This document shows positions 1 to 64,000 of a DNA stretch of 64,000 nucleotides, in pieces (position 1 is the first letter of the stretch; each line of letters opens with the position of its first letter). A model generated the notes under the pieces. The model was not told the origin of the DNA. It made no database searches and saw only the letters and a list, made by a program, of their open reading frames with translations. The DNA lies in the NCBI GenBank assembly GCA_944384405.1, contig CALWTH010000015.1:90-64089 (forward strand), in the 5' to 3' direction. The stretch comes from an uncultured Clostridia bacterium. Lineage in GTDB: Bacteria > Bacillota > Clostridia > Christensenellales > UBA1242. The position numbers and the translations under genes were made by a program.

Positions 1-67
1 TATTAATTTTTTGTCCAACTTTTGGGGTGCACCCCATACAAGGTTGATTTTATTTACAATTTATTCA

Positions 68-1264
68 TTATTCTTGTTCATTATCTTGCTGCAATTTTTT
101 TTGTCTGTGTTTTTCTTCGCGCTGTTTTCTTTCAATAATTGCCTCACGTTCATTTTTAATTTGCTTTGCCACCACAAGTCCGAATATAATATTTCCAATC
201 AAAGAAATGATAATAATCTTTTTTGCTTCTTTGTTGCCCTCATTAAACATACTTTCATCGTCTAATTCTGCTTGTTTTTGCATCTCATATGCAGTCCAAA
301 CACAAAATATTGTCATTATTAAAGGAATAAGACAAAATAGTCCCCAAAGTGTTCCGAGAGGATTTCTTGTTACAGTGCCAAGTATTATTAAAATCAAAAG
401 TCCTTGCATACAGCAAAGTGATTTTGTCGCAAAAGAGTACAAGTCAAAAAATTCATTTCTGTGTCTGTATTCAAGCGTTACTGGATCATGTGTAACTTTT
501 TTATAAATGAAAGTAACAATATAGTAGCAAATAAAGCAAATAATTAAAAATGAAGGAATTGTTATAAGTAAAAACCATGGAAAATTGATTCTTGCGCCAA
601 GCAAGGCAAGGGAAGATGAGTAAGTCATTTCAGCGATGTTGCCACTTCTTGTGACTATTGAAAGTGTCATACATAAACTTGCCATCATGGTGTAACCAGA
701 AATTGCTAGCCAAAATTTTGAAAGGCTTGGTTTAAGTTCGCCAATTTTAATAAAATAAATTGGCACATAAAAGGTGAGAACTGTAAAAATGATTGAAATA
801 ATATTTAAAATGTGATAAGCACTGTCAACTGCGTTTATAATAAGATCAGCCCTAAATAATTGGATAACGACAAAAGGAAGTCCAATTCCAAGAAGCGTGT
901 GCTTACAAAAATCTAAAAAGGCATTGTCTTTTTTTGAAAAAGCACTGACATAAAGGCAAACCATTGCGATTATCATCAAAAGTGTTGTGATTGCATAATT
1001 TGAGTTTAAGCCTAGTGAAAGTAAAAATGAAGAAAATGAATATGTGTTATTAAGATTTAAAAGTCTTACTGTCCAAAATACAAATCTAAACAATAATAGA
1101 AAGGCAATGACGCTTGCAAGCACAATTTTTGTAATCTTTTTTGATTTGTCTGATTTGCCATAGATAGCAAAGAAAAGTCCCACTGTGACGGCGACAATTG
1201 CTATTGGTAATAAAATTCTTAGTAGTGTTGAAATTGGTGTGTTTGAATATTCTAAATTAAACAT
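68..1264 (-). CDS. polytopic integral membrane protein, function unknown (Lys/Glu-rich C-terminal tail)
   Basis: ORF 68..1306 with about 10 hydrophobic segments. Start trimmed to Met15 (MFNLEYS, ATG at 1264) because AAGGA lies about 10 nt upstream, whereas the first ATG sits inside a TATAAT-like box. No family recognised. Confidence 0.5.
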   Translation of the reverse strand: MFNLEYSNTPISTLLRILLPIAIVAVTVGLFFAIYGKSDKSKKITKIVLASVIAFLLLFRFVFWTVRLLNLNNTYSFSSFLLSLGLNSNYAITTLLMIIAMVCLYVSAFSKKDNAFLDFCKHTLLGIGLPFVVIQLFRADLIINAVDSAYHILNIISIIFTVLTFYVPIYFIKIGELKPSLSKFWLAISGYTMMASLCMTLSIVTRSGNIAEMTYSSSLALLGARINFPWFLLITIPSFLIICFICYYIVTFIYKKVTHDPVTLEYRHRNEFFDLYSFATKSLCCMQGLLILIILGTVTRNPLGTLWGLFCLIPLIMTIFCVWTAYEMQKQAELDDESMFNEGNKEAKKIIIISLIGNIIFGLVVAKQIKNEREAIIERKQREEKHRQKKLQQDNEQE

Positions 1265-3473: not shown

Positions 3474-4031
3474 TTAATCTCTTTTTTCAAGCATACTAAA
3501 ATTCTCATGACTTAAATATGCAATAAAACGTTGTTGTGTGTTGTCAATGTTGCCTTTGTAAAAAAATTTCGCTTTTTGTTTGCCTTTGTTTTCTTCCAGA
3601 TTTTCAAATGTTATGTCATAGAAATTATATCCCAAGATATTCAAAAAAGGATTTATATAGAAAAGATCATTTTTTACATAAACAATACCAATTAAAATTA
3701 TAACGAGCACAAAAACAACAAACATACTTACTTTTTCAAGTTCAAAACTTAAAGCAAAAAGAACAAACAATGAAAAATAGCCTAGAAAGTATTTTTCAGT
3801 GATATTTGTTGCGTTTACTATTTTTATTAAAGATTTTGGTGTGCTTTCATGTTTTATTGACATTTTTGCCCCGTATACTCCAAGAATTATTAAAAATGAA
3901 AACGATATTATTGTAAATGTATTTAAAAAATTGAATGTAAGGTTGAAAAAAATAATGTCAATTAAAATTTTGATAATGACGAGTACATAAAGTGGCACAA
4001 ACGCACTAAGATATAATAATATTTTTTTCAT
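3474..4031 (-). CDS. small multi-pass membrane protein, unknown function
   Basis: 185 aa with four to five hydrophobic helices. No recognisable motif and a weak RBS. Confidence 0.4.
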   Translation of the reverse strand: MKKILLYLSAFVPLYVLVIIKILIDIIFFNLTFNFLNTFTIISFSFLIILGVYGAKMSIKHESTPKSLIKIVNATNITEKYFLGYFSLFVLFALSFELEKVSMFVVFVLVIILIGIVYVKNDLFYINPFLNILGYNFYDITFENLEENKGKQKAKFFYKGNIDNTQQRFIAYLSHENFSMLEKRD

Positions 4032-4114: not shown

Positions 4115-4291
4115 ATGAATAACGATTTGTCTTATAGTCAAAAGAAAAATATCAAAAAAGTGATTGATATATGGAAAGTTCAAGGTCATGATTTGTCTAA
4201 AGAAGATGAGAATATGTTAAAAAATGTTGTTTTATCTAAAAGCGCAGATTCACAAATTAAAAACATTTTAAAAAATGAGGAAAGAAAATGA
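4115..4291 (+). CDS. VbhA-type Fic antitoxin (58 aa, not in the supplied ORF track)
   Basis: My translation: MNNDLSYSQKKNIKKVIDIWKVQGHDLSKEDENMLKNVVLSKSADSQIKNILKNEERK. SKEDEN matches the Fic-inhibitory motif [S/T]xxxE[G/N]. GGGGTAGG RBS upstream. Its stop overlaps the fic start (ATGA at 4288..4291). Confidence 0.7.
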   Translation: MNNDLSYSQKKNIKKVIDIWKVQGHDLSKEDENMLKNVVLSKSADSQIKNILKNEERK

Positions 4292-5205
4292 TTTTAAAAT
4301 ATGATTTAGTACGCGATGAAGAAAAAGGCAAATTGCCTTATCTTGACAACATGCTTAATATAATTGATGAAAAAGAGTGTGAGAAAGTTGAAAGAAAATT
4401 ATCCGCATGTCGTGCAGTTGAACTTTTGGAAAGTAAAAAACTTCAAAAATTGCCTCTTGATGAAAAAACACTCAAATATATTCATAAAACTCTTTTTCAG
4501 GATATTTACCCATGGGCAGGCACATTTAGATCTTGTAACATAACAAAGGGCAGTAGCACGTTTTTTAATGTTGATTTTTTAGATTATGGCTTAAAAGAAT
4601 TTTTTTGCAATTTGCAAAAAGATGATTTTCTGCAAGGATTAACAAGAACAGAGTTTGTAGACTTGTTTAGTTATTATTCTAACGAATTAAATTTCTTGCA
4701 TCCATTTAGAGAGGGTAATGGTAGGACAAAAAAAATATTTATGTCAGAACTTGCCAAAAGGGCGGGATTTGAAGTTGATTACAGTAAAATAACACATAGC
4801 CAACTTCGAAGTGCGGAAATTGCCGCTTTTGGCGTCTATAACGATGACGGGACAATTATGCGTTCAATGTATCAACTCAAAAAAATTTATAATGATAATA
4901 TCGTAAGTATAAAAGATATTTCAGCACCGCAAACAAAAACAATTGAAGAATTAATCAATCGTCTATTGTGGATATATGATAGAGAAAGTCAAGTAAATTG
5001 GATGTCGAACCACGCTAGCAAACTTGATGGGGAAAAAGATGTTAAGAGTTTATTGCAAACAAAAGATGGAAGGGAAAAACTTAAAACATATCTAGGTTGT
5101 GCTAAAAGTGGTGTGAAACCTCAAAAGGTTGTAAATTTAATTGATGAAATTATTTTAAAATTAAATTGTATAGAAAAGCCAAAAAGCCAAGATTTAGAAT
5201 ATTAA
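4288..5205 (+). CDS. fic: Fic-domain protein (putative AMP-transferase toxin, class I)
   Basis: 305 aa with active-site loop HPFREGNGRTKK (canonical HxFx[D/E]GNGRxxR, final Arg replaced by Lys). Translationally coupled to the upstream antitoxin ORF. Confidence 0.85.
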   Translation: MILKYDLVRDEEKGKLPYLDNMLNIIDEKECEKVERKLSACRAVELLESKKLQKLPLDEKTLKYIHKTLFQDIYPWAGTFRSCNITKGSSTFFNVDFLDYGLKEFFCNLQKDDFLQGLTRTEFVDLFSYYSNELNFLHPFREGNGRTKKIFMSELAKRAGFEVDYSKITHSQLRSAEIAAFGVYNDDGTIMRSMYQLKKIYNDNIVSIKDISAPQTKTIEELINRLLWIYDRESQVNWMSNHASKLDGEKDVKSLLQTKDGREKLKTYLGCAKSGVKPQKVVNLIDEIILKLNCIEKPKSQDLEY

Positions 5206-10564: not shown

Positions 10565-11373
10565 ACGCTGATGATGTTATGCATAGCATAACTAAAAAAT
10601 TCAAAAAAACAATATACAAAAGATTTGTCCATGCTGTTGACCAGTACAAATTAATCCAAGATGGTGATGTGATAGCGGTGTGTATTTCTGGCGGAAAAGA
10701 TAGTTTTTTGCTTGCCAAATGTATGCAGGTATTAAAAGCACATTGGAACAAAAATTTTGAAATAAAATATGTATGCATGGATCCAGGTTATTTACCAAAA
10801 AATAGAAAACTCATTGAAGACAATGCCAAAAATCTTGGTATTGATTTACACATTTTTTCTAGTCCAATTTTTGATGTTGTTAGTGATGTAACAAAATCTC
10901 CATGCTATCTTTGTGCAAGGATGCGCAGAGGGTATTTATATGAATATGCAAAATCTTTGGGTTGCAACAAAATTGCACTTGGACATCATTTTGATGACGC
11001 TATTGAAACAACGCTACTTAGTATGTTTTATGGTGGGCAGTTTAAGACAATGATGCCAAAGTTAAAGAGCACAAACCATAAGGGAATGGAGTTAATTAGG
11101 CCACTTTATATGGTTCGTGAGCAAGATATTATTCATTGGGCAAAATATAATAATCTAACTTTTTTGAATTGTGCATGCAAACTTACAGAAGGTGTGAGTA
11201 CGGGTAAGTTAAGTTCAAAGCGAAAAGAAATTAAAGACTTGATTGCGACACTAAAGCAAACAATACCGGCAGTTGACAATAATATTTTTAAAAGTTTGGA
11301 TAGTGTTTGTCTTGATACTATACTTGGCTATGTCAAAAATCAAAAGCACATAAGTTTTTTAGACGAGTATTAA
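10561..11373 (+). CDS. ttcA: TtcA-family PP-loop tRNA thiolase
   Basis: PP-loop SGGKDS and SPCYLCARMRRG motif. ATGA overlap with tcdA. Confidence 0.8.
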   Translation: MNADDVMHSITKKFKKTIYKRFVHAVDQYKLIQDGDVIAVCISGGKDSFLLAKCMQVLKAHWNKNFEIKYVCMDPGYLPKNRKLIEDNAKNLGIDLHIFSSPIFDVVSDVTKSPCYLCARMRRGYLYEYAKSLGCNKIALGHHFDDAIETTLLSMFYGGQFKTMMPKLKSTNHKGMELIRPLYMVREQDIIHWAKYNNLTFLNCACKLTEGVSTGKLSSKRKEIKDLIATLKQTIPAVDNNIFKSLDSVCLDTILGYVKNQKHISFLDEY

Positions 11374-11894
11374 AATTCAACACCAAATTTTTTATATAAG
11401 TAGTCGTTTAAAATACCATTGAGCATCTCTAATTTTTCACTTTCACTACCTTTATTTTCAAATAGAATGTGAGATGCTCCATATATGAAAAATGAGATAT
11501 AAAGTTGTTTTTCAGTTGTGTTAATAGTGTTTTTATAGTCTTCAAAAAGTTTTTTCTCACATTTTTTTATGAGAACATCATATCTATTTTTGAAAAGGAT
11601 ATGGATTTGTTCGCAGTTGAATGAGTTGTATATTTCATACACAAGTTTTTTAATGTTCAAAAGAGCACCACTATGCTTTGGCAGTATTTTAAATTTTTCT
11701 TCAATAACTTTGTTTTCAATATAGTCAGAAAAAGCATACACATCACAAAAATAATTGTAAAATGTAGTTTTATTTACCATGGCATTTTCACAAAGCGTTT
11801 TTATTTTAATTTGTTCAAGGGAATTAACTTTTCTTAATTCATAAAACGCTTTTTCAAGTCCCGAAAGTGTCTTTTTTACTCTTAAATCTTGCAA
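11370..11894 (-). CDS. TetR-family transcriptional regulator
   Basis: HTH segment IKTLCENAMVNKTTFYNYF. Start set to the TTG at 11894 because AAAGGAGAA lies 7 nt upstream; the ORF-track start at 11912 would place that RBS inside the coding region. Confidence 0.7.
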   Translation of the reverse strand: MQDLRVKKTLSGLEKAFYELRKVNSLEQIKIKTLCENAMVNKTTFYNYFCDVYAFSDYIENKVIEEKFKILPKHSGALLNIKKLVYEIYNSFNCEQIHILFKNRYDVLIKKCEKKLFEDYKNTINTTEKQLYISFFIYGASHILFENKGSESEKLEMLNGILNDYLYKKFGVEF

Positions 11895-11967
11895 TGTACT
11901 TCTCCTTTTCAACTTTTTTTAAAAAAAGTTTAATAAGCAACTTATATATTAAACTGTAGTTGTTTAA

Positions 11968-18395: not shown

Positions 18396-19526
18396 ATGTT
18401 TTTTGCTTGGAAATTATTCGATGAAGAAATAGATAAATTATTAGAAAGAAAGTCAAAGTATAGTGGTGATGACTTTTATAATAAATATTTTCTTAATGAT
18501 TTGCAAAAAAAGATTGAAAAACACTTTTTTTTAGAACAACGAGTAAATGAGGTGTTTAATTTATTACAAAGTCAATTCAAACTTAGTGAAGAAACATTAA
18601 AAAGTATTTTTCTTCCAAATTCAAGTTTGTTTAAATTGTCAAACAAAGAAATAATGTTAAGATTTAGATATTACATTGATTTTTTTGGAAACATAGACCT
18701 TTTATGTAAAGTTATAAAAAATTCAAGCGTGATATATCGTAAAAATATATTATTTAGTTGGAAGGATATGCATCAAGCCCAAAAACAATTTGATTGGTTA
18801 AAAGATTTTTTTAATTTAAACGAAAATGAAACAAGGCTTTTTATAATTTATAATACATATTTTTTTGTAACAGAACCTAAAAAACTAGAAGAAAAAGTAA
18901 ATGATTATGCAAGAGTTCTTGGAGTAGGTATTGATGTTATAAAACATATTTGTTTATTTTCTCCAATAAGATTTTATAGCATAGTCGAGAGCTTAGAAGA
19001 AAATATAAATGGTTTTTCAAAAATTTTTGATATAGATATAAGTAAAACAAAAGAAATATTTGTAAAATATCCATTTATAATAGATAGGCAAATTACAACA
19101 TTTAGGTATTGTTTTAACATATTAAAAAAATATTCAAAAAATATTTCTTTATTGATGACAGAAAATCCCTTTATTATCAATTTACTTGATTATGAAGGGA
19201 AAAAATACAATGGCGATTTTGACACTTTTGAAGAATTTATTGAGAGTATTGAGTTTATAGAACAAAATATTGGGACAATTATTAGGACATATACTTATGT
19301 ATGCTATAGCAAATTGTATTCATTTTGTATTGTGAAAAAAAATAACGATGTTATAGAATGTATAATTTTTGGGCTGAAGAGTGATAAATTTAACACTAAA
19401 GTTTCAAATTCGTATGCTTATAGAAAATGGATTTTTCCATACTATACTCTTAAAAGTTGCCGAGAAATCTATGTTGAAGAGAGAATTAAAGAAATATTAT
19501 TAGATATTTCTGCGCAAGTAGAATAA
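18396..19526 (+). CDS. hypothetical protein with mTERF-like ~32-aa helical repeats
   Basis: Repeating pattern such as LGVGIDVIKHICLFSPIRFYSIVESLEENINGF / FDIDISKTKEIFVKYPFIIDRQITTFRYCFNIL / SKNISLLMTENPFIINLL. The assignment is by eye only. Confidence 0.35.
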   Translation: MFFAWKLFDEEIDKLLERKSKYSGDDFYNKYFLNDLQKKIEKHFFLEQRVNEVFNLLQSQFKLSEETLKSIFLPNSSLFKLSNKEIMLRFRYYIDFFGNIDLLCKVIKNSSVIYRKNILFSWKDMHQAQKQFDWLKDFFNLNENETRLFIIYNTYFFVTEPKKLEEKVNDYARVLGVGIDVIKHICLFSPIRFYSIVESLEENINGFSKIFDIDISKTKEIFVKYPFIIDRQITTFRYCFNILKKYSKNISLLMTENPFIINLLDYEGKKYNGDFDTFEEFIESIEFIEQNIGTIIRTYTYVCYSKLYSFCIVKKNNDVIECIIFGLKSDKFNTKVSNSYAYRKWIFPYYTLKSCREIYVEERIKEILLDISAQVE

Positions 19527-23932: not shown

Positions 23933-23967
23933 TTGACAACTGGGGGGGGGGGGGGGGCTACTATAAA
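23933..23967 (+). promoter_or_regulatory. promoter of the giant LRR gene with a homopolymer in its spacer
   Basis: TTGACA (23933..23938). -10 candidates TACTAT (23959..23964) and TATAAA (23962..23967). The spacer is occupied by G16. Confidence 0.5.
23942..23957 (+). repeat. poly-G homopolymer, 16 nt
   Basis: Counted directly: t + 9 g, then 7 g + cta. Confidence 0.95.
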
Positions 23968-24030
23968 AATAGCCTAGGGAATGTGCAAAAACTTACCTAG
24001 GTTCTCCCATAAAAAACAAGGAGTGTAAAA

Positions 24031-27000
24031 ATGAAAAATTCCTTAAAATTAATTATCACGATTGCTATGTGTTGCATCTCAACTGCTTTGCTCGTCTTTG
24101 GTGTGTATAGTGCAAATCAAATTGATTATTCACTAACGGGCAATATTTTTTATGAGGTCAACTCTCTTTACACAGATGTGTCAACATCACTTTATGCGTT
24201 GACACAAACACAAGAACAAAGTGAGATTGATTCATATTTAAAAATGGTGGAACTGAAAGATAGTTTGGACAATAATCAATCCCTTCCTGATGATATTGTC
24301 AAATTGGACTATTCTAGTTTTTATTCAACAATGAACAATAACATAAGTGAAGAGGATACTCTGCTAGCTAGCGAAACATTTGGGGTCAGTTATGATGACT
24401 ATGATCCAGTTTTGGTGACGCCAACGGCATACACTTTTTATTTGGTGTTTGAAGTAAAAAACTATTCAAGCGAAACAATAAGTGCACTACTCGATTTTTC
24501 AAATATAACCAATAATACGACCAACACCACAGTAAATTCATTATTCACTAAGGCAAACATATACGGCAAAACAGGGGAAGAGGAATATGGAACATTTTAT
24601 TTTGTGTCGTCACTATCTTTTGATAAGCACTCTATATTAAAATCGTATAATTTTGATAACATAACATTTACAGTAAATACTGGGGAATTGGTGTCAACAC
24701 CATTGTCACAATTTACCTTCACCACAAGCAATGGTCAAGCAACATTGACGTCATATGTAGGCGATAGTACCGATGTGGTTATCCCATCTCACCTTGATGA
24801 CGGAACACCCGTCACAGAATTAGGTGGAAATGCGTTTAGAAACAAAACTATCCAAAATGTTTACATACCAGATACTATTAGTGTAATCAATGATGCTGCT
24901 TTTAGTGGTTGCACAAATTTATCTAATGTTGACATTCAAAGTAATTGTTTGACAAGCATAGGGTATTCAGTTTTTTCTGGTTGCAGTAGTTTACAAAGTA
25001 TAACAATACCAAACTCAGTGATAAGTATAGGAAGATATGCATTTAATAATTGCAGTAGTTTGCAAGGAGTGACATTGCCAAATAACGATAATTTTACAAC
25101 GATAGAAGGTGATATGTTTTATAATTGCAAGAATTTACAAAGTATCACAGTGCCAGGCTCGGTAACAAGTATAGGCAGTTATGCGTTTCGTGGTTGCAGT
25201 AGTCTGCAAGAGGTGACATTGCCAAATAACGATAACTTCACAACGATAGAAAGAGATACATTTAATGGTTGCAGTAGTTTACAAACCATCACAATACCAA
25301 AATCGGTAACAAGTATAGGATATTCTGCGTTTTCTGAATGTAGCAGCATAAAAAGAGTGCACTATTTGGGAACGGTCAACGATTGGCTTAATATAAGTTT
25401 TCATGATGGGACTTCAAACCCCATATGGTATGGTGCAAATTTGTATATAAATGGTACCTTATTTGAAGAGATCAAGGCAGAGGATTTCACTGATGGCAAA
25501 GAGGTCACAAAGATAAATGATTATGCATTTTCTGGTTGTGTCAGTTTAAAAAGTGTCACAATACCAAGTGGTGTGACAAGTATAGGAAGTTCTGCATTTT
25601 ATAGATGTAGTAGCATAAAAGATGTGTACTATTTGGGAACAGTCAATGACTGGCTTAACATAAGTTTTGGTGCTTCATCTTCAAATCCATTGAATAATGG
25701 AGCAAATTTGTATATAAATGGCACCTTATTACTTGAAGAAATAAAGGCAGAGGACTTTACTATTGGCAAAGAGGTAACAGCAATAAGCGATTATGCTTTT
25801 TATAATTGCAAAACTTTAAAAAGTGTCACAATACCAAGTGGTGTAACAAGTATAGGCAGTTATGCGTTTCGTGGTTGCAGAAGTTTACAAAGTATCACAG
25901 TGCCAGGCTCAGTAACAAGTATAGGAAGTTATGCGTTTTATGGTTGCAGTAGTTTACAAGAAGTGACGCTGCCAGATAACAATAACTTATCAACTATAGA
26001 AAATTATACATTTTATGGTTGTAATGGTTTAACAAGTATAACAATACCAGACTCAGTAACAAGTATAGGAAGTTATGCATTTGATGCTTGCAGTAATATA
26101 AAAGAAGTGTACTATTTGGGAACAGTCAATGACTGGTTTAACATAAGTTTTAGTGGTTCATCTTCAAATCCATTGAATAATGGAGCAAATTTGTATATAA
26201 ATGACACCTTACTTGAAGAGATTAGGGCAGAGGATTTTACTATTGGCAAAGAGGTAACAGCAATAAGCGAATATGCTTTTTATAATTGCAAAACTTTAAA
26301 AAGTGTTACAATACCAAGTGGTGTAACAAGTATAGGAAGTTATGCATTTAATGATTGCAGTAGTTTGCAAAGTATTATAGTGCCCGATACGGTAACAAGC
26401 ATAAGATATCAAGCGTTTACGGGTTGCAGTAATATAAAAGAAGTGTACTATTTGGGAACAGTCAATGACTGGCTTAACATAAGTTTTGGTGATTTATATT
26501 CAAATCCATTGAATAATGGAGCAAATTTGCATATAAATGATACCTTACTTGAAGAAATAAAGGCAGAGGACTTTACTGATGGTAATGAGGTCACAAAGAT
26601 AGGTTATGCATTTTATGGTTGTAATAGTTTAAAAACCATTACAATACCAGAAACGGTAACAAGTATAGGAAGTTCTGCATTTTATGGTTGCAGTAATTTA
26701 CAAGAAGTGACACTGCCAGATAACGATAAATTTACAACGATAGAAAGAAATACATTTGATGGTTGCAGTAGTTTACAAACCATCACAATCCCAGCAAATG
26801 TAACAAGTATAGGAAGTCAAGCATTTTATAATTGCAGTAGTTTACAAGAAGTGACACTGCCAGATAACGATAAATTTACAACGATAGAAAGTAATACATT
26901 TTATAATTGCTGTAGTTTATCTAGCATCACAATCCCAGCAAATGTAACAACTATAGGAAGTCAAGCATTTTGGGGTTGCAGTAATTTGTTTCTTGTTATT

Positions 27001-29007
27001 AATTTATCTACTAGTATAACAATTAGTTTGAAAAGCAGTTCAAACGGATATGTTGGATATTATGCCAAGAAAATAACAAATACTTTAAGTCAGGATAATT
27101 TTTATACTCAAGATGGAATACATTATTATGAAGATAATGAAATAAAGATTATATTAGGAATTGACATTGAGGGCTACACAATGACAATACCAGAGGGAAC
27201 AGTTGCAATAACTTCGGGACTTGTCCTTGGTTTACTTCCTGAGAGTGCTGGGAAAAACGTGATAGCAAAAGTTGTTATACCAAGTTCAGTAACAAGCATA
27301 GGGAGTTCGGCATTCAGTGGTTTTGGAAATTTAAAAGAAGTTTATTATTTGGGAACAGTCAACGACTGGCTCAATATAAGGTTTTCTAATGATACTTCGA
27401 ACCCAATGAGTTATGGTGCAAATTTGTATATAAATGATACCTTACTTGAAGAAATAAAGGCGAATGACTTTACTGATGGCAAAAATATAACTAGAATAAG
27501 CGACTATGCTTTTTATAATTGTAAAAGTTTACAAAGTATCACAATAGCGGATACTGTTGAGACCATAGGAAGTCGAGCATTTTCTGGTTGCAGTAGTTTA
27601 CAAAGTATCACAGTGCCGGGCTCGGTAACAAGTATAGGAAGTCTAGTGTTTTATGGTTGCAGTAGTATAACAGAAGTGCACTATCTTGGAACAGTCAACG
27701 ACTGGCTCAATATAAGTTTTTTTGATTCCTATGCAAATCCATTATATTTTGGTAATGCTATTTGGTATATGAACGATACATTACTTGAAGAAATAACTGT
27801 AGAGGATTTTACTAATGGTAAAGAGATAAATACGATAAGCGAATATGCATTTTATGGATGTGCCAGTTTAAAAAGCATCACAATCCCAGCAAATGTAACA
27901 AGTATAGGCAGTTCTGCGTTTGATGGTTGCAGTAATTTACAAGAAGTGACATTGCCAAATAACACTGATTTTACAACGATAGGAAGTAATACATTTTCTA
28001 ATTGCAGTAGTTTACAAACCATTACAATACCAGAAACGGTAACAAGTATAGGACGTTCTGCATTTTATAATTGCAGTAGTTTACAAAGTATTATAGTGCC
28101 AAAATCGGTAACAAGTATAGGACGTTCTGCATTTTATAATTGCAGTAGTTTACAAAGTATTATAGTGCCAAAATCGGTAACAAGTATAGGCAGTTCTGCG
28201 TTTAATGGTTGCAGTAGTTTACAAGAAGTGACATTGCCAGATAACGATAAATTTACAACTATAGAAAATCATACATTTTCTGAGTGCAGTGATTTGCAAA
28301 TCATAACAATACCAGGCTCGGTAACAAGTATAGGAGATTCAGCATTTTATAGTTGCTATGATTTGCAAACCATAACAATACCAGGCTCGGTAACAAGTAT
28401 AGGAAGTTATGCATTTTATAGTTGCAGTAGTATAAAAGAAGTGCGTTATTTGGGAACAGTCAACGACTGGCTCAATATAAGTTTTTCTATGAAAGAGTCA
28501 AATCCGATGCGCTTTACTGATAATGTGTACATAAATGATAGCCTGCTTGAAGAGATAACGGCAGAGGATTTTACGGATGGAACAAATAAAATAACAAAAA
28601 TAAACAATTATGCTTTTTATGGCTATTATAGTTTAAAAAAGGTCACAATACCGGACTTTGTGGAAAGTATCGGAAATCAAGCATTTTATAATTGCTATAA
28701 TTTACAAACCATCACAATACCAAACACTGTTGAAAACATAGGAAATTATGCATTTGATACTGATTATAGAGCTTCTTCAATTTACAGAATAATTGTTGAA
28801 AGCGAAACAGTTTTAAAAGGTTTGACGGGAACTGGAACAAGCACAATGGGTGCTTTACTTTCAACAGTGGAAGATAACTTGGATAGAATATACATTCCAG
28901 AATCTATTGAGGATTCTGTGCCTGATTATATTAAAAACAACTGGACAAAGTTTGACAAAACTGAAACAGTTAATGGAACGATATATGTTATTTATGGAAA
29001 AATATAG
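24031..29007 (+). CDS. giant BspA-type leucine-rich-repeat surface protein (1658 aa)
   Basis: N-terminal signal-anchor, then dozens of ~23-aa units of the form ITIPxSVTSIGxxAFxxCSSLQ (BspA/LRR_5 type), plus seven 58-aa YLGTVNDWLNISF modules. No LPXTG or other C-terminal anchor seen. AAGGAG RBS. Confidence 0.85.
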   Translation: MKNSLKLIITIAMCCISTALLVFGVYSANQIDYSLTGNIFYEVNSLYTDVSTSLYALTQTQEQSEIDSYLKMVELKDSLDNNQSLPDDIVKLDYSSFYSTMNNNISEEDTLLASETFGVSYDDYDPVLVTPTAYTFYLVFEVKNYSSETISALLDFSNITNNTTNTTVNSLFTKANIYGKTGEEEYGTFYFVSSLSFDKHSILKSYNFDNITFTVNTGELVSTPLSQFTFTTSNGQATLTSYVGDSTDVVIPSHLDDGTPVTELGGNAFRNKTIQNVYIPDTISVINDAAFSGCTNLSNVDIQSNCLTSIGYSVFSGCSSLQSITIPNSVISIGRYAFNNCSSLQGVTLPNNDNFTTIEGDMFYNCKNLQSITVPGSVTSIGSYAFRGCSSLQEVTLPNNDNFTTIERDTFNGCSSLQTITIPKSVTSIGYSAFSECSSIKRVHYLGTVNDWLNISFHDGTSNPIWYGANLYINGTLFEEIKAEDFTDGKEVTKINDYAFSGCVSLKSVTIPSGVTSIGSSAFYRCSSIKDVYYLGTVNDWLNISFGASSSNPLNNGANLYINGTLLLEEIKAEDFTIGKEVTAISDYAFYNCKTLKSVTIPSGVTSIGSYAFRGCRSLQSITVPGSVTSIGSYAFYGCSSLQEVTLPDNNNLSTIENYTFYGCNGLTSITIPDSVTSIGSYAFDACSNIKEVYYLGTVNDWFNISFSGSSSNPLNNGANLYINDTLLEEIRAEDFTIGKEVTAISEYAFYNCKTLKSVTIPSGVTSIGSYAFNDCSSLQSIIVPDTVTSIRYQAFTGCSNIKEVYYLGTVNDWLNISFGDLYSNPLNNGANLHINDTLLEEIKAEDFTDGNEVTKIGYAFYGCNSLKTITIPETVTSIGSSAFYGCSNLQEVTLPDNDKFTTIERNTFDGCSSLQTITIPANVTSIGSQAFYNCSSLQEVTLPDNDKFTTIESNTFYNCCSLSSITIPANVTTIGSQAFWGCSNLFLVINLSTSITISLKSSSNGYVGYYAKKITNTLSQDNFYTQDGIHYYEDNEIKIILGIDIEGYTMTIPEGTVAITSGLVLGLLPESAGKNVIAKVVIPSSVTSIGSSAFSGFGNLKEVYYLGTVNDWLNIRFSNDTSNPMSYGANLYINDTLLEEIKANDFTDGKNITRISDYAFYNCKSLQSITIADTVETIGSRAFSGCSSLQSITVPGSVTSIGSLVFYGCSSITEVHYLGTVNDWLNISFFDSYANPLYFGNAIWYMNDTLLEEITVEDFTNGKEINTISEYAFYGCASLKSITIPANVTSIGSSAFDGCSNLQEVTLPNNTDFTTIGSNTFSNCSSLQTITIPETVTSIGRSAFYNCSSLQSIIVPKSVTSIGRSAFYNCSSLQSIIVPKSVTSIGSSAFNGCSSLQEVTLPDNDKFTTIENHTFSECSDLQIITIPGSVTSIGDSAFYSCYDLQTITIPGSVTSIGSYAFYSCSSIKEVRYLGTVNDWLNISFSMKESNPMRFTDNVYINDSLLEEITAEDFTDGTNKITKINNYAFYGYYSLKKVTIPDFVESIGNQAFYNCYNLQTITIPNTVENIGNYAFDTDYRASSIYRIIVESETVLKGLTGTGTSTMGALLSTVEDNLDRIYIPESIEDSVPDYIKNNWTKFDKTETVNGTIYVIYGKI
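28037..28174 (+). repeat. perfect 69-bp tandem duplication inside the LRR gene
   Basis: 28037..28105 is identical to 28106..28174 (encoding SVTSIGRSAFYNCSSLQSIIVPK twice). The next 16 nt repeat again before diverging. Confidence 0.9.
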
Positions 29008-45394: not shown

Positions 45395-46193
45395 AATAAA
45401 TTATTCAAAAGAACACAAAAAATACCTAAAAAAAATAAAGGTAGATAAGTTTACAACACTGATTGCTCAAATACTGCTTCTTGGAGTGTTTGTTGGACTA
45501 TGGGAATTGTTGACCTATGTTGGCGTATTAGATGCCTTCTTCATAAGTTCACCATCAAGAATGATAAACGAACTTGCAGAACTATTTAAAGATGGCATGC
45601 TATTTTATCACATAGGAGTCACGCTATATGAAACTTTGATTGGCTTTTTAATTGCTACAGTTCTTGGAACTCTTATTGCGATAATTTTGTGGTGGAGCAG
45701 AAAACTAAGAAAAATTTTGGAGCCATACATTGTCATATTAAACGCATTGCCTAAAATTGCTCTAGGGCCTGTAATCATCATTTGGGTTGGAGCGGGTACT
45801 GGTGCGATTATAACAATGTGTATACTCATTTGTATTGTCATAACAACTCTATCAATGCTTTCAGCATTTTTGGAGTGCGATGAAGATAAGATTTCTCTCA
45901 TGCGTTCAATGGGTGCAAATAAATTTCAAATACTTGTTAAACTAGTCATTCCAAACGCACTTACGGAGTTTGTTTCAGTACTTAAAATAAATGTTGGAAT
46001 GAGTTGGGTAGGAACAATTATGGGAGAGTATCTTGTGAGTAAAGCAGGACTTGGATATTTGATTGTATACGGCGGTCAAGTGTTTCAACTCGACCTTGTC
46101 ATGGCAAGTACATTAATACTTTGTATCCTTGCCTGTGTAATGTACCTCTTTGTTGGACTTTTGGAGAAAAAAGTTAGGAAACATAAGGAATAG
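45381..46193 (+). CDS. ABC transporter permease (SsuC/TauC-like)
   Basis: Six TM helices with an EAA-like loop. GTG start overlaps the ATPase end. Confidence 0.75.
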   Translation: MKNNKINYSKEHKKYLKKIKVDKFTTLIAQILLLGVFVGLWELLTYVGVLDAFFISSPSRMINELAELFKDGMLFYHIGVTLYETLIGFLIATVLGTLIAIILWWSRKLRKILEPYIVILNALPKIALGPVIIIWVGAGTGAIITMCILICIVITTLSMLSAFLECDEDKISLMRSMGANKFQILVKLVIPNALTEFVSVLKINVGMSWVGTIMGEYLVSKAGLGYLIVYGGQVFQLDLVMASTLILCILACVMYLFVGLLEKKVRKHKE

Positions 46194-47144
46194 CACAAGA
46201 TAACCGCCCAATATTCCTATTATTGGATAGAAGTATTTGATTAAATAATCAAATTGAACGAAAGAGCAAATCACGCACACCACAACTGCACATATGCAAT
46301 TTAATATTTTTGACTTAAAATTAAAAAATGATTTTACTGTTATTGTTGTGCTTATTAGTGTGGTGATAATTGCAAACTCAATCAAAATAGAATAAATCAT
46401 ATAAAGCGCATCATGACTTTGGGCGAGCGACAGCATTGGTATGCTGTCGCTTATTGTTTGTTGGTTGCACAGTCCAGCAAGTATCATAACAGCCATTAAA
46501 AGACACAAGATAAATGATGTCCAAAAACTTATTTTTTTGCATTGATTTTTTGTTAAGTTATATGCCGATGAAGATATCACAAAATAGCACAAAAAAACAT
46601 TGCGGGTGACATATGTTATTGCATTATACGGCAAAAGTACAATGTGCGAAACTATTGCGTTATTTATTCCATCAAAACTTGAAAAACAAATGATTAAAAT
46701 AATCACAATTGTTATTGGAATTGTAATCATACAAATTAAATTCAAATATTTTAAATTTTTATTTATTAAAAAACAAAGTAAAATTGAAATAATAATAGTA
46801 AAAAAAATTTCAAATAACATTGAAGAAATTTCAAGTGATTGTTTAAGTCCGCTAATCATAGTTGATGATATTATTGAAAAAGAAATAAATGTAAATATTT
46901 TAATTAATTTATTATTTTTTTTAAATATTATTAAATTTAATTGTTCGGTATTTTCTATTTTATTTTTTGTACCTATATCTAAAAGTTTAAATATACAAAA
47001 ATAAAATCCAAAAAACACAATGGGAAGGCATAAAAATGAATAATAGCCAAATATAGTAAAAAAAGTGGTTATTTCTTTACCGCTCGCAAAACCAGCGCCG
47101 ATTATTGTCCCCAAAATCAGTAAAGTTATTTTTATACTTCTCAT
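46113..47144 (-). CDS. YkvI-family membrane protein
   Basis: N-terminal GTIIGAGFASGKEITTFF, typical of YkvI-like transporters. About 11 TM helices. Confidence 0.55.
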   Translation of the reverse strand: MRSIKITLLILGTIIGAGFASGKEITTFFTIFGYYSFLCLPIVFFGFYFCIFKLLDIGTKNKIENTEQLNLIIFKKNNKLIKIFTFISFSIISSTMISGLKQSLEISSMLFEIFFTIIISILLCFLINKNLKYLNLICMITIPITIVIILIICFSSFDGINNAIVSHIVLLPYNAITYVTRNVFLCYFVISSSAYNLTKNQCKKISFWTSFILCLLMAVMILAGLCNQQTISDSIPMLSLAQSHDALYMIYSILIEFAIITTLISTTITVKSFFNFKSKILNCICAVVVCVICSFVQFDYLIKYFYPIIGILGGYLVLFLMFPNFFLQKSNKEVHYTGKDTKY

Positions 47145-47210: not shown

Positions 47211-47816
47211 ATGAATTCAAAAGTTGTTAGTATATTTTTGCTTATTCTATTATTTGCATTTTGCGTATCAAGCGTGATACCATATCCTAATTTTGTCAGC
47301 GACAACTATTTACTTGCAAAAGATCAACAAAATATAAATGATAAATATGAAGATGAAAATAAAAATGTAATTGATACGGCGAGTGAAGTTGATGTTTTGT
47401 CATACGATTGGTTCGAATTTATGGACGAGCATTTTACAAAATATGTGACAGTTAGGGTGATAGACATATGGAGTGAAACTGAATATTTTGTTCAACGCTT
47501 TGGCGGTTACAATCACGCTGATGTTCAAACCATTGACCAAGAAAATACCAACATATTCAAAAATGTATATGGTGGTGAGTGGTCATGGACTAGAAGACCA
47601 GTTTGGGTAGAGATTGACGGACAGTTTTATGCAGGTTCAACAAATGGTATGCCTCATGGATTTTCAATTTTGGATAATGGTGAGGGCGGACACACTTGCA
47701 TTCATTTTTTAAATAGTAAAACTCATGGGACAAAAAGAGTAGATGAACAGCACCAAGAATGTGTTGCCTTTGCAAAAAAAAGCAAGGACCTTTTAAATCA
47801 GTACCTTGCTAAATAA
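47211..47816 (+). CDS. secreted hypothetical protein
   Basis: Signal-peptide-like N-terminus. No motif recognised and a weak RBS. Confidence 0.4.
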   Translation: MNSKVVSIFLLILLFAFCVSSVIPYPNFVSDNYLLAKDQQNINDKYEDENKNVIDTASEVDVLSYDWFEFMDEHFTKYVTVRVIDIWSETEYFVQRFGGYNHADVQTIDQENTNIFKNVYGGEWSWTRRPVWVEIDGQFYAGSTNGMPHGFSILDNGEGGHTCIHFLNSKTHGTKRVDEQHQECVAFAKKSKDLLNQYLAK

Positions 47817-60807: not shown

Positions 60808-61703
60808 TGGGACTTTTTAAAAAAATATCAGAGGCTTTAAAAAAGACAAAGGAAGCGTTCGCTCGCAAACTTGACGCTTTGCTTTCCGGCGGTGAACTAA
60901 ATGATGAGTTTTATGAAGAACTAACTGACATATTAATTTCATCTGATGTTGGCTTTGAATGTAGTGAAAAAATTGTTGATAGACTTCGCTTATATGCAAG
61001 AAAAAACAAGATAAGAACATCTGCAGAAGTCAAAAACGCCTTAAAGACAATACTTGTTGAAATTATGCAACAATTACCAACAGTTGAAATAAAATATCCT
61101 GCAATAATAACAATTGTTGGTGTCAATGGGGTTGGAAAGACCACAACAATAGGCAAATTAGCAAAATTTTTCAAAAGTCAAAAAAAAGAAGTCACTTTGG
61201 TTGCAGGCGACACGTTTCGTGCCGCTGCGAGCGACCAACTCACCGAATGGGCGAATAGAAATAAAGTGCGAATAGTCAAACACGCAGAGGGAACAGATGC
61301 TGCAGCAGTTGTTTTTGATGGTGTTTCAAGTGCAAAAGCCAAAAATACTGATGTTCTCATCATTGACACTGCGGGCAGACTTCAAACAAAAACCAATTTA
61401 ATGGAAGAACTTAAAAAAATTGATAAGGTTATTGATAAAGAGTATAGTGAGGCAAATAAATACACATTCATTGTCCTTGACGCAACAACAGGGCAAAACG
61501 CACTTAGCCAAATTAAACACTTTGATGAATATGTTAAAATTGATGGAATAATTTTAACAAAACTTGACGGAACGGCAAAAGGTGGAGTTGTGTTTGCTAT
61601 TGCAGACGAACTTGAACTTCCTGTTGTTTTTGTCGGAACAGGTGAAACTATTGACGACATTGATGTATTCGATGCAAAAGAGTTTGTTGAAAACATTATT
61701 TAA
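60807..61703 (+). CDS. ftsY: signal recognition particle receptor FtsY (short form, NG domain only)
   Basis: GVNGVGKTTTIGKLA, DTAGR and TKLDGTAKGG motifs. Confidence 0.95.
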   Translation: MGLFKKISEALKKTKEAFARKLDALLSGGELNDEFYEELTDILISSDVGFECSEKIVDRLRLYARKNKIRTSAEVKNALKTILVEIMQQLPTVEIKYPAIITIVGVNGVGKTTTIGKLAKFFKSQKKEVTLVAGDTFRAAASDQLTEWANRNKVRIVKHAEGTDAAAVVFDGVSSAKAKNTDVLIIDTAGRLQTKTNLMEELKKIDKVIDKEYSEANKYTFIVLDATTGQNALSQIKHFDEYVKIDGIILTKLDGTAKGGVVFAIADELELPVVFVGTGETIDDIDVFDAKEFVENII

Positions 61704-61714
61704 TATCAAATTTT

Positions 61715-61745
61715 ACACACTGATTTGTTCAGTGTGTATTTTTTA
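61715..61745 (+). terminator. rho-independent terminator after ftsY
   Basis: ACACACTGA-TTTGT-TCAGTGTGT followed by ATTTTTT. Confidence 0.7.
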
Positions 61746-61750
61746 TGATT

Positions 61751-61790
61751 TTCGACATCATTCGACACATTTCGACACCGTTCGACACGG
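61751..61790 (+). repeat. four tandem 10-bp repeats TTCGACAYNN
   Basis: TTCGACATCA TTCGACACAT TTCGACACCG TTCGACACGG, read directly. A fifth TTCGACA lies at 61993..61999. Confidence 0.9.
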
Positions 61791-61801
61791 TAAGGAAAGG
61801 T

Positions 61802-62004
61802 GGTGTCATTCTGAGATACCAGTGCAGTTTTTGCCCAATGTCATTCTGAGCCGAAGGCGAAGAATCTCCAAGAGCAAGAGATGCTTCCTCTCCGTCAGGT
61901 AGGCAAAGGTCAGCATGACAAAAGGGTGTCATTCTGACCATATTTATTGTCATTTCGAGCGTAGCGAGAAATCTTATAGATGTCTCACTTCATTCGACAT
62001 GACA
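61802..62004 (+). repeat. cluster of TGTCATTCTGAG-type repeats forming imperfect hairpins
   Basis: Motif copies at 61804, 61839, 61927 and 61948. Hairpins at 61859..61887, 61908..61939, 61966..61986 and 61948..62004. Confidence 0.7.
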
Positions 62005-62030
62005 TGAGAGAGTGCTATAAAAAAATGGTA

Positions 62031-62054
62031 CATCTAATTTATTATTAGGTGTAC
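62031..62054 (+). repeat. left arm of a perfect 24-bp inverted repeat
   Basis: CATCTAATTTATTATTAGGTGTAC, exact reverse complement of 62155..62178. It is also part of a local A5-hairpin-T5 terminator-like palindrome (62021..62060). Confidence 0.9.
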
Positions 62055-62110
62055 CATTTTTGTAAATATTATGTATATATTTTGTCTAATCACTAAAAGA
62101 ATATCACCTT

Positions 62111-62140
62111 TTGACCTGTTTTCAAAATAAATTTAATAAT
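62111..62140 (+). promoter_or_regulatory. putative promoter inside the IR-flanked segment, facing the LRR gene
   Basis: TTGACC (62111..62116), 18 nt, AATAAT (62135..62140); alternatively a 17-nt spacer to TAATAA. Confidence 0.35.
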
Positions 62141-62154
62141 TTTTTTTTAAAGAA

Positions 62155-62178
62155 GTACACCTAATAATAAATTAGATG
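62155..62178 (+). repeat. right arm of the perfect 24-bp inverted repeat
   Basis: GTACACCTAATAATAAATTAGATG, 31 nt upstream of the LRR gene ATG. Confidence 0.9.
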
Positions 62179-62208
62179 GTCCGGGGAAATGGGAAAAGGA
62201 GAAAAAGT

Positions 62209-64000
62209 ATGAACAGAAAGTCTAAGTTATTCTTTAGTTTAGTATCGTTATGTTTTAGTATAGCAGTACTATGTTTTGGAGTATACAGTGCACTAAGTGT
62301 AAGTTACTCCATAAGTGGTAGTGTAAGTTATGAAATAAACGATGTGTTTGTTGAACTAGATTTAAGTGTGTATAGAGCATTATCTACAACACCAGTTAAT
62401 AGTACAACACATAATCAAAACGTAAGCACAATAAAGGATGCAGGAGATAATATCTCCGAAACAGACTTTGGCAAACTATCATACACCGATCATGAATCCA
62501 CATACGAGGATGAAGTAGTAACAAAGCCAGGACAAAAGTGGAGTGCTTCATCACCAGACTTAGACCTAACATACGGCTCACCAACAAACGACAATCAAGG
62601 TTATGCATTTTATATAGTAATAGATATACATAACCTAGGCAGTGAGATAATAAACGCACAAATAACAGCACCAACATCACTAGAAAACACCATTTTGCGT
62701 GACTCAGGCAATATCGAAATAGCAGCAGACGGCACAGAGCGAATAGTCCTAGGTTTAGCCCTAGACGATGTAACAACAGGTATAAAAAGTGCCGGCTTTA
62801 CCTACACAATAACAATCTCTCGTGGTGAATTGCCAATAGAAGAAATAACAGATATGGTTTTTTCTGTTGATGAAGGGACCGCTACGCTAAGATCTTACGG
62901 TGGATCAGGCGGAGATGTTGTTATACCAGAGACAATAGGATATGATATAGTTTCTTCAAGGACTTTGATATTTGGAACAATGGAAGATACAGAATCTGAA
63001 ATGAATGCGATTTATTTTTATCAAGATTTAAATATAAAACTTCCAAATCAGAAAACACAACTTATTGAAAATCCACTATTATGGCGCAATGAAAATGCGG
63101 AGGCCATGGAAGCAACACCACAAAATTATTTTCCAATGACTATACAAACTGTAGATAGTTATACAATTGATCAAGAAGATTATACTTCATATGCTACATT
63201 AGATCAAGATGCGGCTATGATGGCTACTATTATGCCAATACAAATGATAATTGGAGGTTTATTATATAATTCAGTAGATGTACAATATGGTCCAGAAAAA
63301 CAATCTTTTACTTTTAATATGGAAAACTATAATGCTGCCATAACAGGTGTCGAAAGTCCAACAAGTACAGCAATACTAGACTTTATACCAAAAGCATACT
63401 CTGTTCCCGAGTCGTTATTGCCAGTAACCTATAGCAATTTTGGATATAATGTAGCTGTAAAAGGGAATGAATATTCTGTGACAAGTATAGGAGATGGAGC
63501 CTTCCGTGATTGCGATGCATTAACCAGTATAGAGATCCCAAGCGGTGTGAAAAGTATAGGAGAATATGCCTTCTTTTCTTGCTCCAACTTAACCAGTATA
63601 GAGATCCCAAGCGGTGTGACAAGTATAGGAGAAGAGGCCTTCGGTAATTGCTCTGCACTAGAAACAGTAACCTTTGGAGCAAACTCACAACTAGAAAGTA
63701 TAGGATATATGACCTTCTATTATTGCTCCAACTTAACCAGTATAACCATCCCAAGCAGTGTGACAAGTATAGGAGAAGAGGCCTTCTGGAATTGTTACGC
63801 ATTAGCGGAAATATACAACTATTCAACACATATACCAGAAGTTACAATAGGAAATTCAAGTTCAAGTACAAATGGTTATTTGGGGCAATATGCCAAAGAA
63901 GTATATAACCCAAGTGATTTAACAGGAGGTAAACCAGTAACAAGGATACAACCAATAGGTAATGTTCAATACTATATAGATGGAGAAGATTTTATAGCAT
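62209..64000 (+). CDS. BspA-type LRR surface protein, paralog of 24031..29007 (5' part; runs off the window)
   Basis: Not in the ORF track because it has no stop in the window. My translation is open for 597 codons: MNRKSKLFFSLVSLCFSIAVLCFGVYSALSVSYSISGSVSYEIN..., with LRR units IEIPSGVTSIGEEAF from about 63480. AAAGGAG RBS. Confidence 0.8.
   Translation, partial: MNRKSKLFFSLVSLCFSIAVLCFGVYSALSVSYSISGSVSYEINDVFVELDLSVYRALSTTPVNSTTHNQNVSTIKDAGDNISETDFGKLSYTDHESTYEDEVVTKPGQKWSASSPDLDLTYGSPTNDNQGYAFYIVIDIHNLGSEIINAQITAPTSLENTILRDSGNIEIAADGTERIVLGLALDDVTTGIKSAGFTYTITISRGELPIEEITDMVFSVDEGTATLRSYGGSGGDVVIPETIGYDIVSSRTLIFGTMEDTESEMNAIYFYQDLNIKLPNQKTQLIENPLLWRNENAEAMEATPQNYFPMTIQTVDSYTIDQEDYTSYATLDQDAAMMATIMPIQMIIGGLLYNSVDVQYGPEKQSFTFNMENYNAAITGVESPTSTAILDFIPKAYSVPESLLPVTYSNFGYNVAVKGNEYSVTSIGDGAFRDCDALTSIEIPSGVKSIGEYAFFSCSNLTSIEIPSGVTSIGEEAFGNCSALETVTFGANSQLESIGYMTFYYCSNLTSITIPSSVTSIGEEAFWNCYALAEIYNYSTHIPEVTIGNSSSSTNGYLGQYAKEVYNPSDLTGGKPVTRIQPIGNVQYYIDGEDFIA

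Follow-up and report, generated by a model that had tools for sequence, protein, structure and literature searches.

A putative 148-bp inversion switch, one of a family of miniature elements upstream of BspA-type surface-protein genes in uncultured Clostridia

The DNA considered here, hereafter the window, is a stretch of 64,000 nucleotides from an uncultured gut Clostridia bacterium (contig CALWTH010000015.1, positions 90 to 64,089, assembly GCA_944384405.1). Near its right end lies a 148-bp element (62031–62178, arm to arm) that stops 31 nt short of the ATG (62209) of a surface-protein gene with BspA-type leucine-rich repeats (LRRs), and this element is very likely a member of a family of miniature site-specific inversion switches whose recombinase would be encoded elsewhere. 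All members stand 30–45 nt before genes that belong to a single surface-protein family, in an uncultured Clostridia lineage of low guanine–cytosine (GC) content. The identification as an inversion switch rests on the inverted repeat, the architecture of the sites that contain it, their conservation, the matched spacers of partner sites, and the existence of homologues in both orientations; we infer ongoing inversion at the window locus, the class of the recombinase, and the orientation that is ON.

Inverted repeat and recombination-type sites at the window locus

The arms of the element are perfect over 24 bp: the sequence CATCTAATTTATTATTAGGTGTAC at 62031–62054 is the exact reverse complement of positions 62155–62178, and the two arms enclose an AT-rich core of 100 bp (62055–62154). 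An earlier, sequence-only reading of the same DNA had reported this arrangement, and the coordinates and exact complementarity are confirmed, as is the start codon 31 nt beyond the right arm, where the ATG follows a ribosome-binding site, AAGGAG, read from the sequence at 62196–62201 on the plus strand, 7 nt before the ATG. Within the 64-kb window the arm 24-mer is confined to these two positions, also with up to 3 mismatches allowed, and its chance expectation, from 100 dinucleotide-preserving shuffles of the window, is 0. The repeat had been described as inverted rather than direct, and this holds: 26 of 31 positions match in the inverted register against 19 of 31 in the direct one (counted by eye), the difference arising at the asymmetric 7-nt centre and at one stem position that is likewise asymmetric. 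No target-site duplication flanks the element in the window sequence. An apparent extension of the inverted repeat to 62 nt at 71% was dismissed as AT-richness rather than signal, and a known riboswitch or small RNA was rejected after an Rfam scan of 61650–62350 at E ≤ 1, which returned only sub-threshold chance matches to eukaryotic small nucleolar RNA and microRNA models. A pair of inverted repeats around a short intergenic segment adjoining the regulated gene is the arrangement of an inverton, and it is present at the window locus.

Each arm is part of a larger, 31-bp near-palindrome that the earlier reading had missed. The left site (62026–62056) consists of an outer half-site TGGTACATCTAA, the spacer TTTATTA (62038–62044), and an inner half-site TTAGGTGTACCA; the right site (62153–62183) consists of an inner half-site AAGTACACCTAA, the spacer TAATAAA (62165–62171), which is the reverse complement of the left spacer, and an outer half-site TTAGATGGTCCG. 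The four half-sites of 11–12 bp share the consensus GGTACAYCTAA and form two inverted pairs, each around an asymmetric 7-bp spacer (GGTACATCTAA-TTTATTA-TTAGGTGTACC), so that the lox/FRT/dif-like layout of inverted 11–13-bp elements around a 6–8-bp asymmetric spacer is found at both ends of the core. Across the family, the arm motif is GTACATCTAA-N7-TTAGGTGTAC, with CATCTAA in every outer half-site and CACCTAA in every inner one; the half-sites of the left site do not vary among 11 distinct homologous elements.

The loxP and FRT sites are built from 11–13-bp inverted binding elements around a 6–8-bp asymmetric spacer that recombining partners must share; the orientation of the lox spacer decides between inversion and excision, and its sequence may vary as long as the partners match, as in heterospecific lox sites. 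By this established knowledge, the layout described here would be that of the core sites of tyrosine recombinases (lox, FRT, and dif), and its likeness to loxP and FRT is one of architecture only, with no sequence similarity. A single base forms the centre of the palindrome (12+5+12), and the variation that is matched between arms spans 3 central positions, features that appear to fit an overlap of 6–8 bp better than the 2-bp crossover of serine invertases. Because of the 11–12/7/11–12 layout, the odd-length centre, and the matched variation over three central positions, a recombinase of the tyrosine type is the most likely candidate, and the enzyme would probably be of this kind rather than a serine recombinase.

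Homologous elements, matched spacers, and orientation

An exact-match scan with the arm 23-mer, covering one genome per species for 185,579 species, recovered the pair or a single arm upstream of a homologous gene in three uncultured Clostridia metagenome-assembled genomes (MAGs). The sequence-only reading had asked whether the arm might be a dispersed hairpin resembling a repetitive extragenic palindrome (REP) or a miniature inverted-repeat transposable element (MITE); apart from two coincidental matches, the 23-mer was found only at this type of locus. The two exceptions (L004 and L005; Emticicia, Cytophagales MAG) were rejected, as they lie within coding sequence for a tail-fibre-like motif (...GIGTTTPNNKLDVLG...). 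A degenerate arm pattern gave 0 matches in IMG/VR. The metagenome scan, which also used the exact 23-mer, gave one contig without a partner arm (L009): on this unrelated 1.5-kb contig a lone arm copy, TACATCTAATTTATTATTAGGTGTA followed by TTTT, occurs between two genes (1108–1140) and may be a terminator only, or a relic.

The complete arm–core–arm element was found upstream of paralogous genes in at least eight genomic contexts in related uncultured Clostridia. It follows FtsY in the window, L001, and L002, precedes the S10 ribosomal operon in L010 and L011, and follows enolase in L012; it lies near thymidylate kinase (Tmk) in L019 and near GlmS/PFK/DnaE in L006, and adjoins an RsgI-like gene in L007 and an SF1 helicase gene in L008. 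Further copies are present in L020, L022, and L013, the last being partial. The idea that L006, L007, and L008 represent the FtsY locus of sister species was rejected, as tblastn and Pfam searches placed them in different contexts. Two contigs start inside the element, L013 (1–63) and L021 (1–18), one at core position 62 and the other in the right-arm spacer; such starts are expected for a repeat that is multi-copy and/or heterogeneous, where assemblers break.

Among the 12 complete elements, nine are oriented as in the window and three have the core reversed (L012, L020, and L022). The outer flanks of these three copies are unaltered, but their inner flanks have traded places exactly, each as its reverse complement: next to the left arm stands TACTTCTT, where unflipped copies have TACCATTT, and just before the right arm stands AAATGGTA, where unflipped copies have AAGAAGTA. 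The breakpoints lie inside the arms, and the pattern is one that would be expected of reciprocal exchange within them. When the segment between the two spacers is re-inverted in silico, all 11 distinct elements align collinearly. The flipped copies do not form one clade: L012 resembles the unflipped copies, and L020 and L022 share a CC variant. As the flipped copies have no private core sequence, more than one inversion event is needed. Both orientations, which the sequence-only reading had proposed to look for, are thus found in nature across homologues, with the flips located at paralogous loci and in one assembly series; that expectation is borne out among paralogous loci (9 versus 3), and neither at the exact locus of the window nor within one sample.

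The spacer occurs in three variants, TTTATTA, TTTAATA, and TTAAATA, and in all 12 complete elements the partner arm carries the same variant as its reverse complement; a fourth variant, TTTTATA, is present in the partial element of L013. In an arm-versus-arm count of the central 19 bp, only two columns vary, both changing on both sides in every row, and no unmatched cell is seen. The four central 5-mers observed are all non-palindromic, as directionality requires. Partner spacers are therefore identical and vary only when matched, as in tyrosine-recombinase sites, the variation comprising few independent events. Since the spacer positions form the loops of local hairpins, local folding cannot explain the matching, which can be explained by a requirement for identical crossover regions or by homogenisation during recombination.

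The element is also conserved beyond its surroundings. Expressed as mean pairwise identity among 10 elements, conservation amounts to 95.7% in the half-sites and 89.8% in the core, compared with 87.1% in the first 150 nt of the coding sequence, 82.4% in the next 600 nt, and 57% in the 100 nt upstream of the element. The non-coding element is more conserved than the coding sequence, and it is therefore under stronger constraint than the protein encoded downstream.

Promoters, terminators, and competing explanations

The core contains two candidate promoters in opposition. P(+), at 62111–62140 on the plus strand, reads TTGACC-18-AATAAT and points toward the LRR gene in the window orientation, with a score of 9–10 of 12; the hexamers are 18 nt apart in 8 elements and 19 nt apart in 3, a TG motif is lacking, and the predicted start falls in a T-run. 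P(−), at 62098–62125 on the minus strand, was overlooked in the earlier reading; it reads TTGAAA-16-TGA-TATTCT (TATTCT or TATTAT across elements), points away from the gene in the window orientation, and likewise scores 9–10 of 12. Its spacer is constant at 16 nt in 11 of 11 elements, and it has an extended −10 TG, purines at the expected start, and an A9/AT-rich, UP-like tract upstream (62126–62150). In the alignment of elements, invariant core blocks coincide with all four promoter hexamers, so that both promoters may be real. There is a slight leaning toward P(−) as the functional promoter on these sequence features, and if it is, the window copy would be OFF, its leftward transcript ending at the terminator of the left arm (U7). 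The promoter directed toward the gene in the earlier reading is thus present, but as one of two candidates, of which the other is at least as good, and the window copy may be OFF. In the 99.5% near-identical strain of L002, AAAGAAG at the inner edge of the right arm is changed to ATATAAT (L002 1400–1410, corresponding to window 62149–62155), which creates a TATAAT and brings the perfect repeat down to 23 bp.

In the window orientation, the left site, extended by an A7 run in its outer flank and a T5 run in its inner flank, forms a bidirectional intrinsic-terminator-like hairpin of 18 bp (62021–62061). The hairpin of the rightward RNA has a folding energy of −22 kcal/mol (z −8.1), with UUUUUG after it; that of the leftward RNA has −17 kcal/mol (z −6.3), with U7 after it. 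An in-silico flip weakens the left-junction folds to −13.4 (rightward) and −9.3 kcal/mol (leftward), and the rightward tail of the flipped junction, UUCUUU, is still U-rich and terminator-like. The right site has no stable RNA hairpin (−5.4 kcal/mol, z +0.6). The A-run of the outer left flank, which provides the leftward terminator, is present at single-gene loci; in L020 it is replaced by a flank that bears a ribosome-binding site, with a gene diverging to the left.

These features suggest how the switch would work. A recombinase acting from elsewhere in the genome would pair the two sites, whose centres are 126–128 bp apart, and strand exchange within the spacers would reverse the 100-bp core. 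As the core would carry promoter activity, each flip would turn the transcription of the downstream gene on or off. The A-run of the outer left flank would make the left site a terminator that stops the promoter facing away from the gene, and its conservation makes sense if it serves as an insulator for whichever promoter faces left. The recombinase itself was not found in the window: none of its 39 open reading frames (ORFs) scanned against Pfam matched PF00589 or PF00239, in agreement with what the sequence-only reading had stated, and a permissive Pfam scan (E ≤ 0.1) of unannotated ORFs found no cryptic recombinase near the elements.

Several observations weigh against an inversion switch. 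No recombinase was found by gene tables and Pfam in ~100 kb of flanks of 15 homologous loci, and no single locus was seen in both states among the assemblies compared; the FtsY locus (window, L001, and L002), the only one seen in several assemblies with flanks, shows a single state. The promoters of the core are putative, being consensus matches only and two in opposition, and the promoter-like sites of the region, 5 found against a shuffle expectation of 3.8, are not above expectation. In L007 the perfect repeat is down to 18 bp through divergence in the inner half of the right site. The matched spacers rest on two or three independent substitution events, so few that a global shuffle control was not significant, and the matching may be regarded as supportive, not conclusive. 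The 100-bp core is shorter than the switches of Clostridioides difficile (154–230 bp); loxP/FRT-type systems tolerate very short loops (~80–100 bp) in vitro. Finally, the left arm looks like a strong bidirectional intrinsic terminator, as predicted by folding. The earlier reading had named a palindrome acting only as a terminator as a result that would count against an inverton; terminator-like folding is indeed seen, but it would not be the sole role of the arm, as the right arm is unfolded, the spacers are matched, and flipped copies exist.

A further challenge concerns the assemblies. All flips come from one assembly series, ERZ16268xxx (“scaffold_N”), in which 3 of 5 elements are flipped, against 0 of 8 from other assemblers or series, and the flip pattern could also arise from an assembler that places segments between inverted repeats in the wrong orientation. 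In L020, the left-diverging gene (1–831, minus strand) has the 5′ untranslated region (UTR), ribosome-binding site, and first ~48 codons of the family (92% nucleotide identity to L011) and then runs on into a Plug domain of the TonB-dependent-receptor type (Pfam E 3e-17), where the GC content is 0.44–0.47; it may represent one switch toggling two divergent genes, or the scaffold may be chimeric exactly at the element, which would also count against the switch. Together with the strong terminator of the left arm on both strands and the contigs that break within the element (L013 and L021), where assemblers evidently struggle, these facts would suit a fixed, non-switching cassette, composed of a left-arm bidirectional terminator, a promoter, and a 5′-UTR palindrome, that was duplicated with the 5′ end of the gene and appears flipped through assembly artefacts at a short, multi-copy inverted repeat. 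Such a cassette is unlikely. It gives no reason for the perfect 24–29-bp complement in the right arm, which is unfolded as RNA (z +0.6), it leaves the mirrored spacer substitutions of 12 of 12 elements unexplained, and the flipped copies differ from one another in core sequence and context. An assembly artefact is itself considered unlikely because the arms (24–29 bp; 41 bp in L020) are shorter than reads and than the final k-mers of current assemblers, so that data spanning the junctions ought to settle which way the segment lies, and no N gaps occur in the vicinity of the flipped copies.

Three other explanations fare less well. Inversion could be real and yet act as in cwpV, through an orientation-dependent terminator at the left junction that controls transcripts started upstream, rather than through a promoter in the core. 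This mode operates in another clostridial organism (PMC2784873), and the left junction does change from −22 kcal/mol with U5 as it stands to −13.4 with UUCUUU when flipped; the flipped junction remains terminator-like, however, FtsY has its own terminator (61714–61738), nothing upstream of the left arm makes a convincing promoter (the strongest candidates are ATGACA-16-AAAAAT and TCGACA-16-TGcTATAAA, the latter without the −10 T), and the conserved leftward terminator and four conserved core hexamers favour an internal promoter, which makes this explanation improbable. It is more improbable still that the sites are a pair of operators, bound by a transcription factor that acts as a dimer or tetramer and loops the promoter without recombination: palindromic half-sites do flank the promoter at an in-phase distance (centres 127 bp apart, ~12 helical turns), but operators do not require mirror-identical, co-varying asymmetric spacers, and reversed cores with exchanged inner flanks would have no explanation. 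The least probable alternative is a mobile hairpin of the MITE/REP kind inserted upstream of the gene by chance. Terminal inverted repeats, small size, and several copies per genome would suit it, but the spacing between copy and start codon is the same throughout, all copies belonging to one gene family and adjoining its conserved 5′ UTR and leader, a target-site duplication is lacking, and the exact arm is absent elsewhere in the 185,579 species genomes, apart from the coincidental Cytophagales coding matches, and in IMG/VR.

The gene family, related systems, and significance

The gene that the inversion switch would control (62209–64000, plus strand, extending past the window end) encodes the conserved leader MNRKSKLFFSLVSLCFS... 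and a BspA-type LRR_5 domain (Pfam E 3.5e-35); public gene calls begin it at an in-frame ATG at 62176, within the right arm. BspA-type LRR proteins serve many gut and oral bacteria as adhesins and host-interaction proteins. A search of the protein database with the N-terminal 420 residues as query yielded 67 proteins, which form a family with the conserved leader. All family members share a 5′ module (window 62209–62360 and paralogues) made up of the 5′ UTR and ~50 codons (MNRKSKLFFSLVSLCFSIAVLCFGVYSALSVSYS.SGSVSYE), past which they diverge into LRR_5, DUF6273 (PF19789), or other domains, and the switch appears to travel with this module. Upstream of the element lie SMC and FtsY. The intergenic region at 61740–62010 is dense in short repeats (CATTCGACA four times, GGTGTCATTCTGA three times, plus GTCATTTCGAGCGTAGCGAGAAATCT), and the same motifs are present upstream of paralogues in L010, L011, L012, L019, and L022; gene callers place a spurious 70-aa minus-strand ORF in this region (L001 10923–11135). 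Elsewhere in the window, a Fic/DOC family protein (4288–5205, Pfam E 6e-15) is encoded amid housekeeping genes, and ORFs of 180–410 aa without a Pfam match are located at 68–1306, 3474–4031, 11370–11912, 18396–19526, 46113–47144, and 47211–47816.

Other members of the gene family carry a different device. A G16 tract (23942–23957) lies between a TTGACA −35 and a TACTAT/TATAAA −10 element (region 23933–23970), ~75 nt upstream of a gene for a 1658-aa BspA/LRR_5 protein (24031–29007), an arrangement that appears to be classic slipped-strand promoter phase variation; as the −35/−10 spacing at G16 is too long (20–23 nt), this copy is probably OFF. The tract upstream of paralogue P0012 is G18 in L014 (9788–9805) and G17 in L015 (47–63), the same locus in different samples, and the contigs with paralogue P0010 (L023 1–19 and L024 1–21) are broken off at a G/C homopolymer that lies shortly before a TTGACG promoter. 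The distant paralogues of L014–L018 and L023/L024 have no arms or core and carry poly-G/C tracts or plain promoters instead. With poly-G tracts on some paralogues and the inversion element on others, one gene family uses two phase-variation devices. The multi-locus, phase-variable LRR repertoire proposed in the earlier reading is in this way upheld, by elements at many paralogues and by poly-G promoter tracts on others, one of which differs in length between samples (G18 versus G17).

The closest analogue at the level of the system is the mpl (P35) family of Mycoplasma penetrans, which is likewise a scattered surface-protein family with a short invertible promoter of its own for each gene. Work by Horino in 2003 is said to have found mpl elements of ~135 bp with 12-bp inverted repeats. 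Each mpl gene is switched ON and OFF independently by its own invertible promoter, and the recombinases need not be encoded next to it (PMC2268961; PMC10502178). The present family differs in belonging to another phylum-level lineage, in encoding proteins with a leader and BspA-type LRRs rather than lipoproteins, in its longer (24–29 bp), palindromic arms with locus-specific spacers, and in the use of poly-G tracts by some paralogues.

Among more closely related organisms, the nearest counterparts are the RecV switches of C. difficile (flgB/Cdi4, cmrRST/Cdi6, and cwpV/Cdi1), which share with the present elements a clostridial host and short intergenic segments bounded by inverted repeats. The tyrosine recombinase RecV acts in trans on several switches of 154–230 bp with inverted repeats of ~21 bp (PMC5903667). 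These repeats are mostly unrelated to one another, whereas the same site sequence recurs here at every locus. The likeness to known invertons drawn in the earlier reading is upheld except for its example of cwpV as an invertible promoter, since the switch of this cell-wall/surface protein is terminator-based (PMC2784873). Bacteroides exerts global, multi-locus control of its surface by promoter inversion (PMC5903667; PMC2268961). Its promoter invertons (Mpi and Tsr; PhaseFinder-type) resemble the present elements in inverting promoters from a shared repeat motif and differ in phylum, repeat consensus, and cargo (capsule, SusC/D, and fimbriae), Mpi being a serine and Tsr a tyrosine enzyme. The fimS segment of Escherichia coli is also a promoter-bearing invertible segment directly upstream of a gene for a surface structure, but it measures 314 bp, has 9-bp inverted repeats and adjacent dedicated recombinases (FimB/FimE), and occurs at a single locus. 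Most invertons in large catalogues are small, more than 75% of them measuring less than 300 bp (PMC11602134).

By its sequence features, the functional class is thus very probably that of the inverton, a known mode of bacterial surface variation, of which this family would be a further example. What sets it apart is how short the core is, that the arms are palindromic and lox-like with spacers specific to the locus yet matched between arms, and that other paralogues carry poly-G tracts. A link between invertons and BspA/LRR genes was not found in the literature searched, nor was a description of phase-variable control of a whole BspA-LRR repertoire. If the elements do not invert, they would stand as a caution that short segments bounded by inverted repeats can look flipped in some public assemblies.

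A fuller and more tentative picture, possible but doubtful as a whole, is that one recombinase acting in trans serves a set of lox-like invertons (~127 bp), that the locus-specific spacers function as heterospecific sites, that the terminators of the arms act as insulators of neighbouring genes, that L020 is a two-gene toggle, and that poly-G tracts operate alongside. If so, the spacers TTTATTA, TTTAATA, TTAAATA, and TTTTATA would let each locus flip independently while suppressing recombination between loci and the chromosome scrambling that it would cause, and the elements would be among the shortest natural promoter switches. If the switch as such is borne out, its arm-matched, locus-specific spacers would amount to a natural experiment on how multi-copy recombination sites avoid cross-talk between loci, and designers of synthetic switches could make use of the short 100-bp core as a minimal part. 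Metagenomic reads could be scored directly for so compact and sequence-defined a family, allowing surface variation to be tracked in vivo without culture. For the uncultured Clostridia that carry it, the fuller picture would also mean combinatorial variation of the cell surface, generated by two mechanisms within one gene family.

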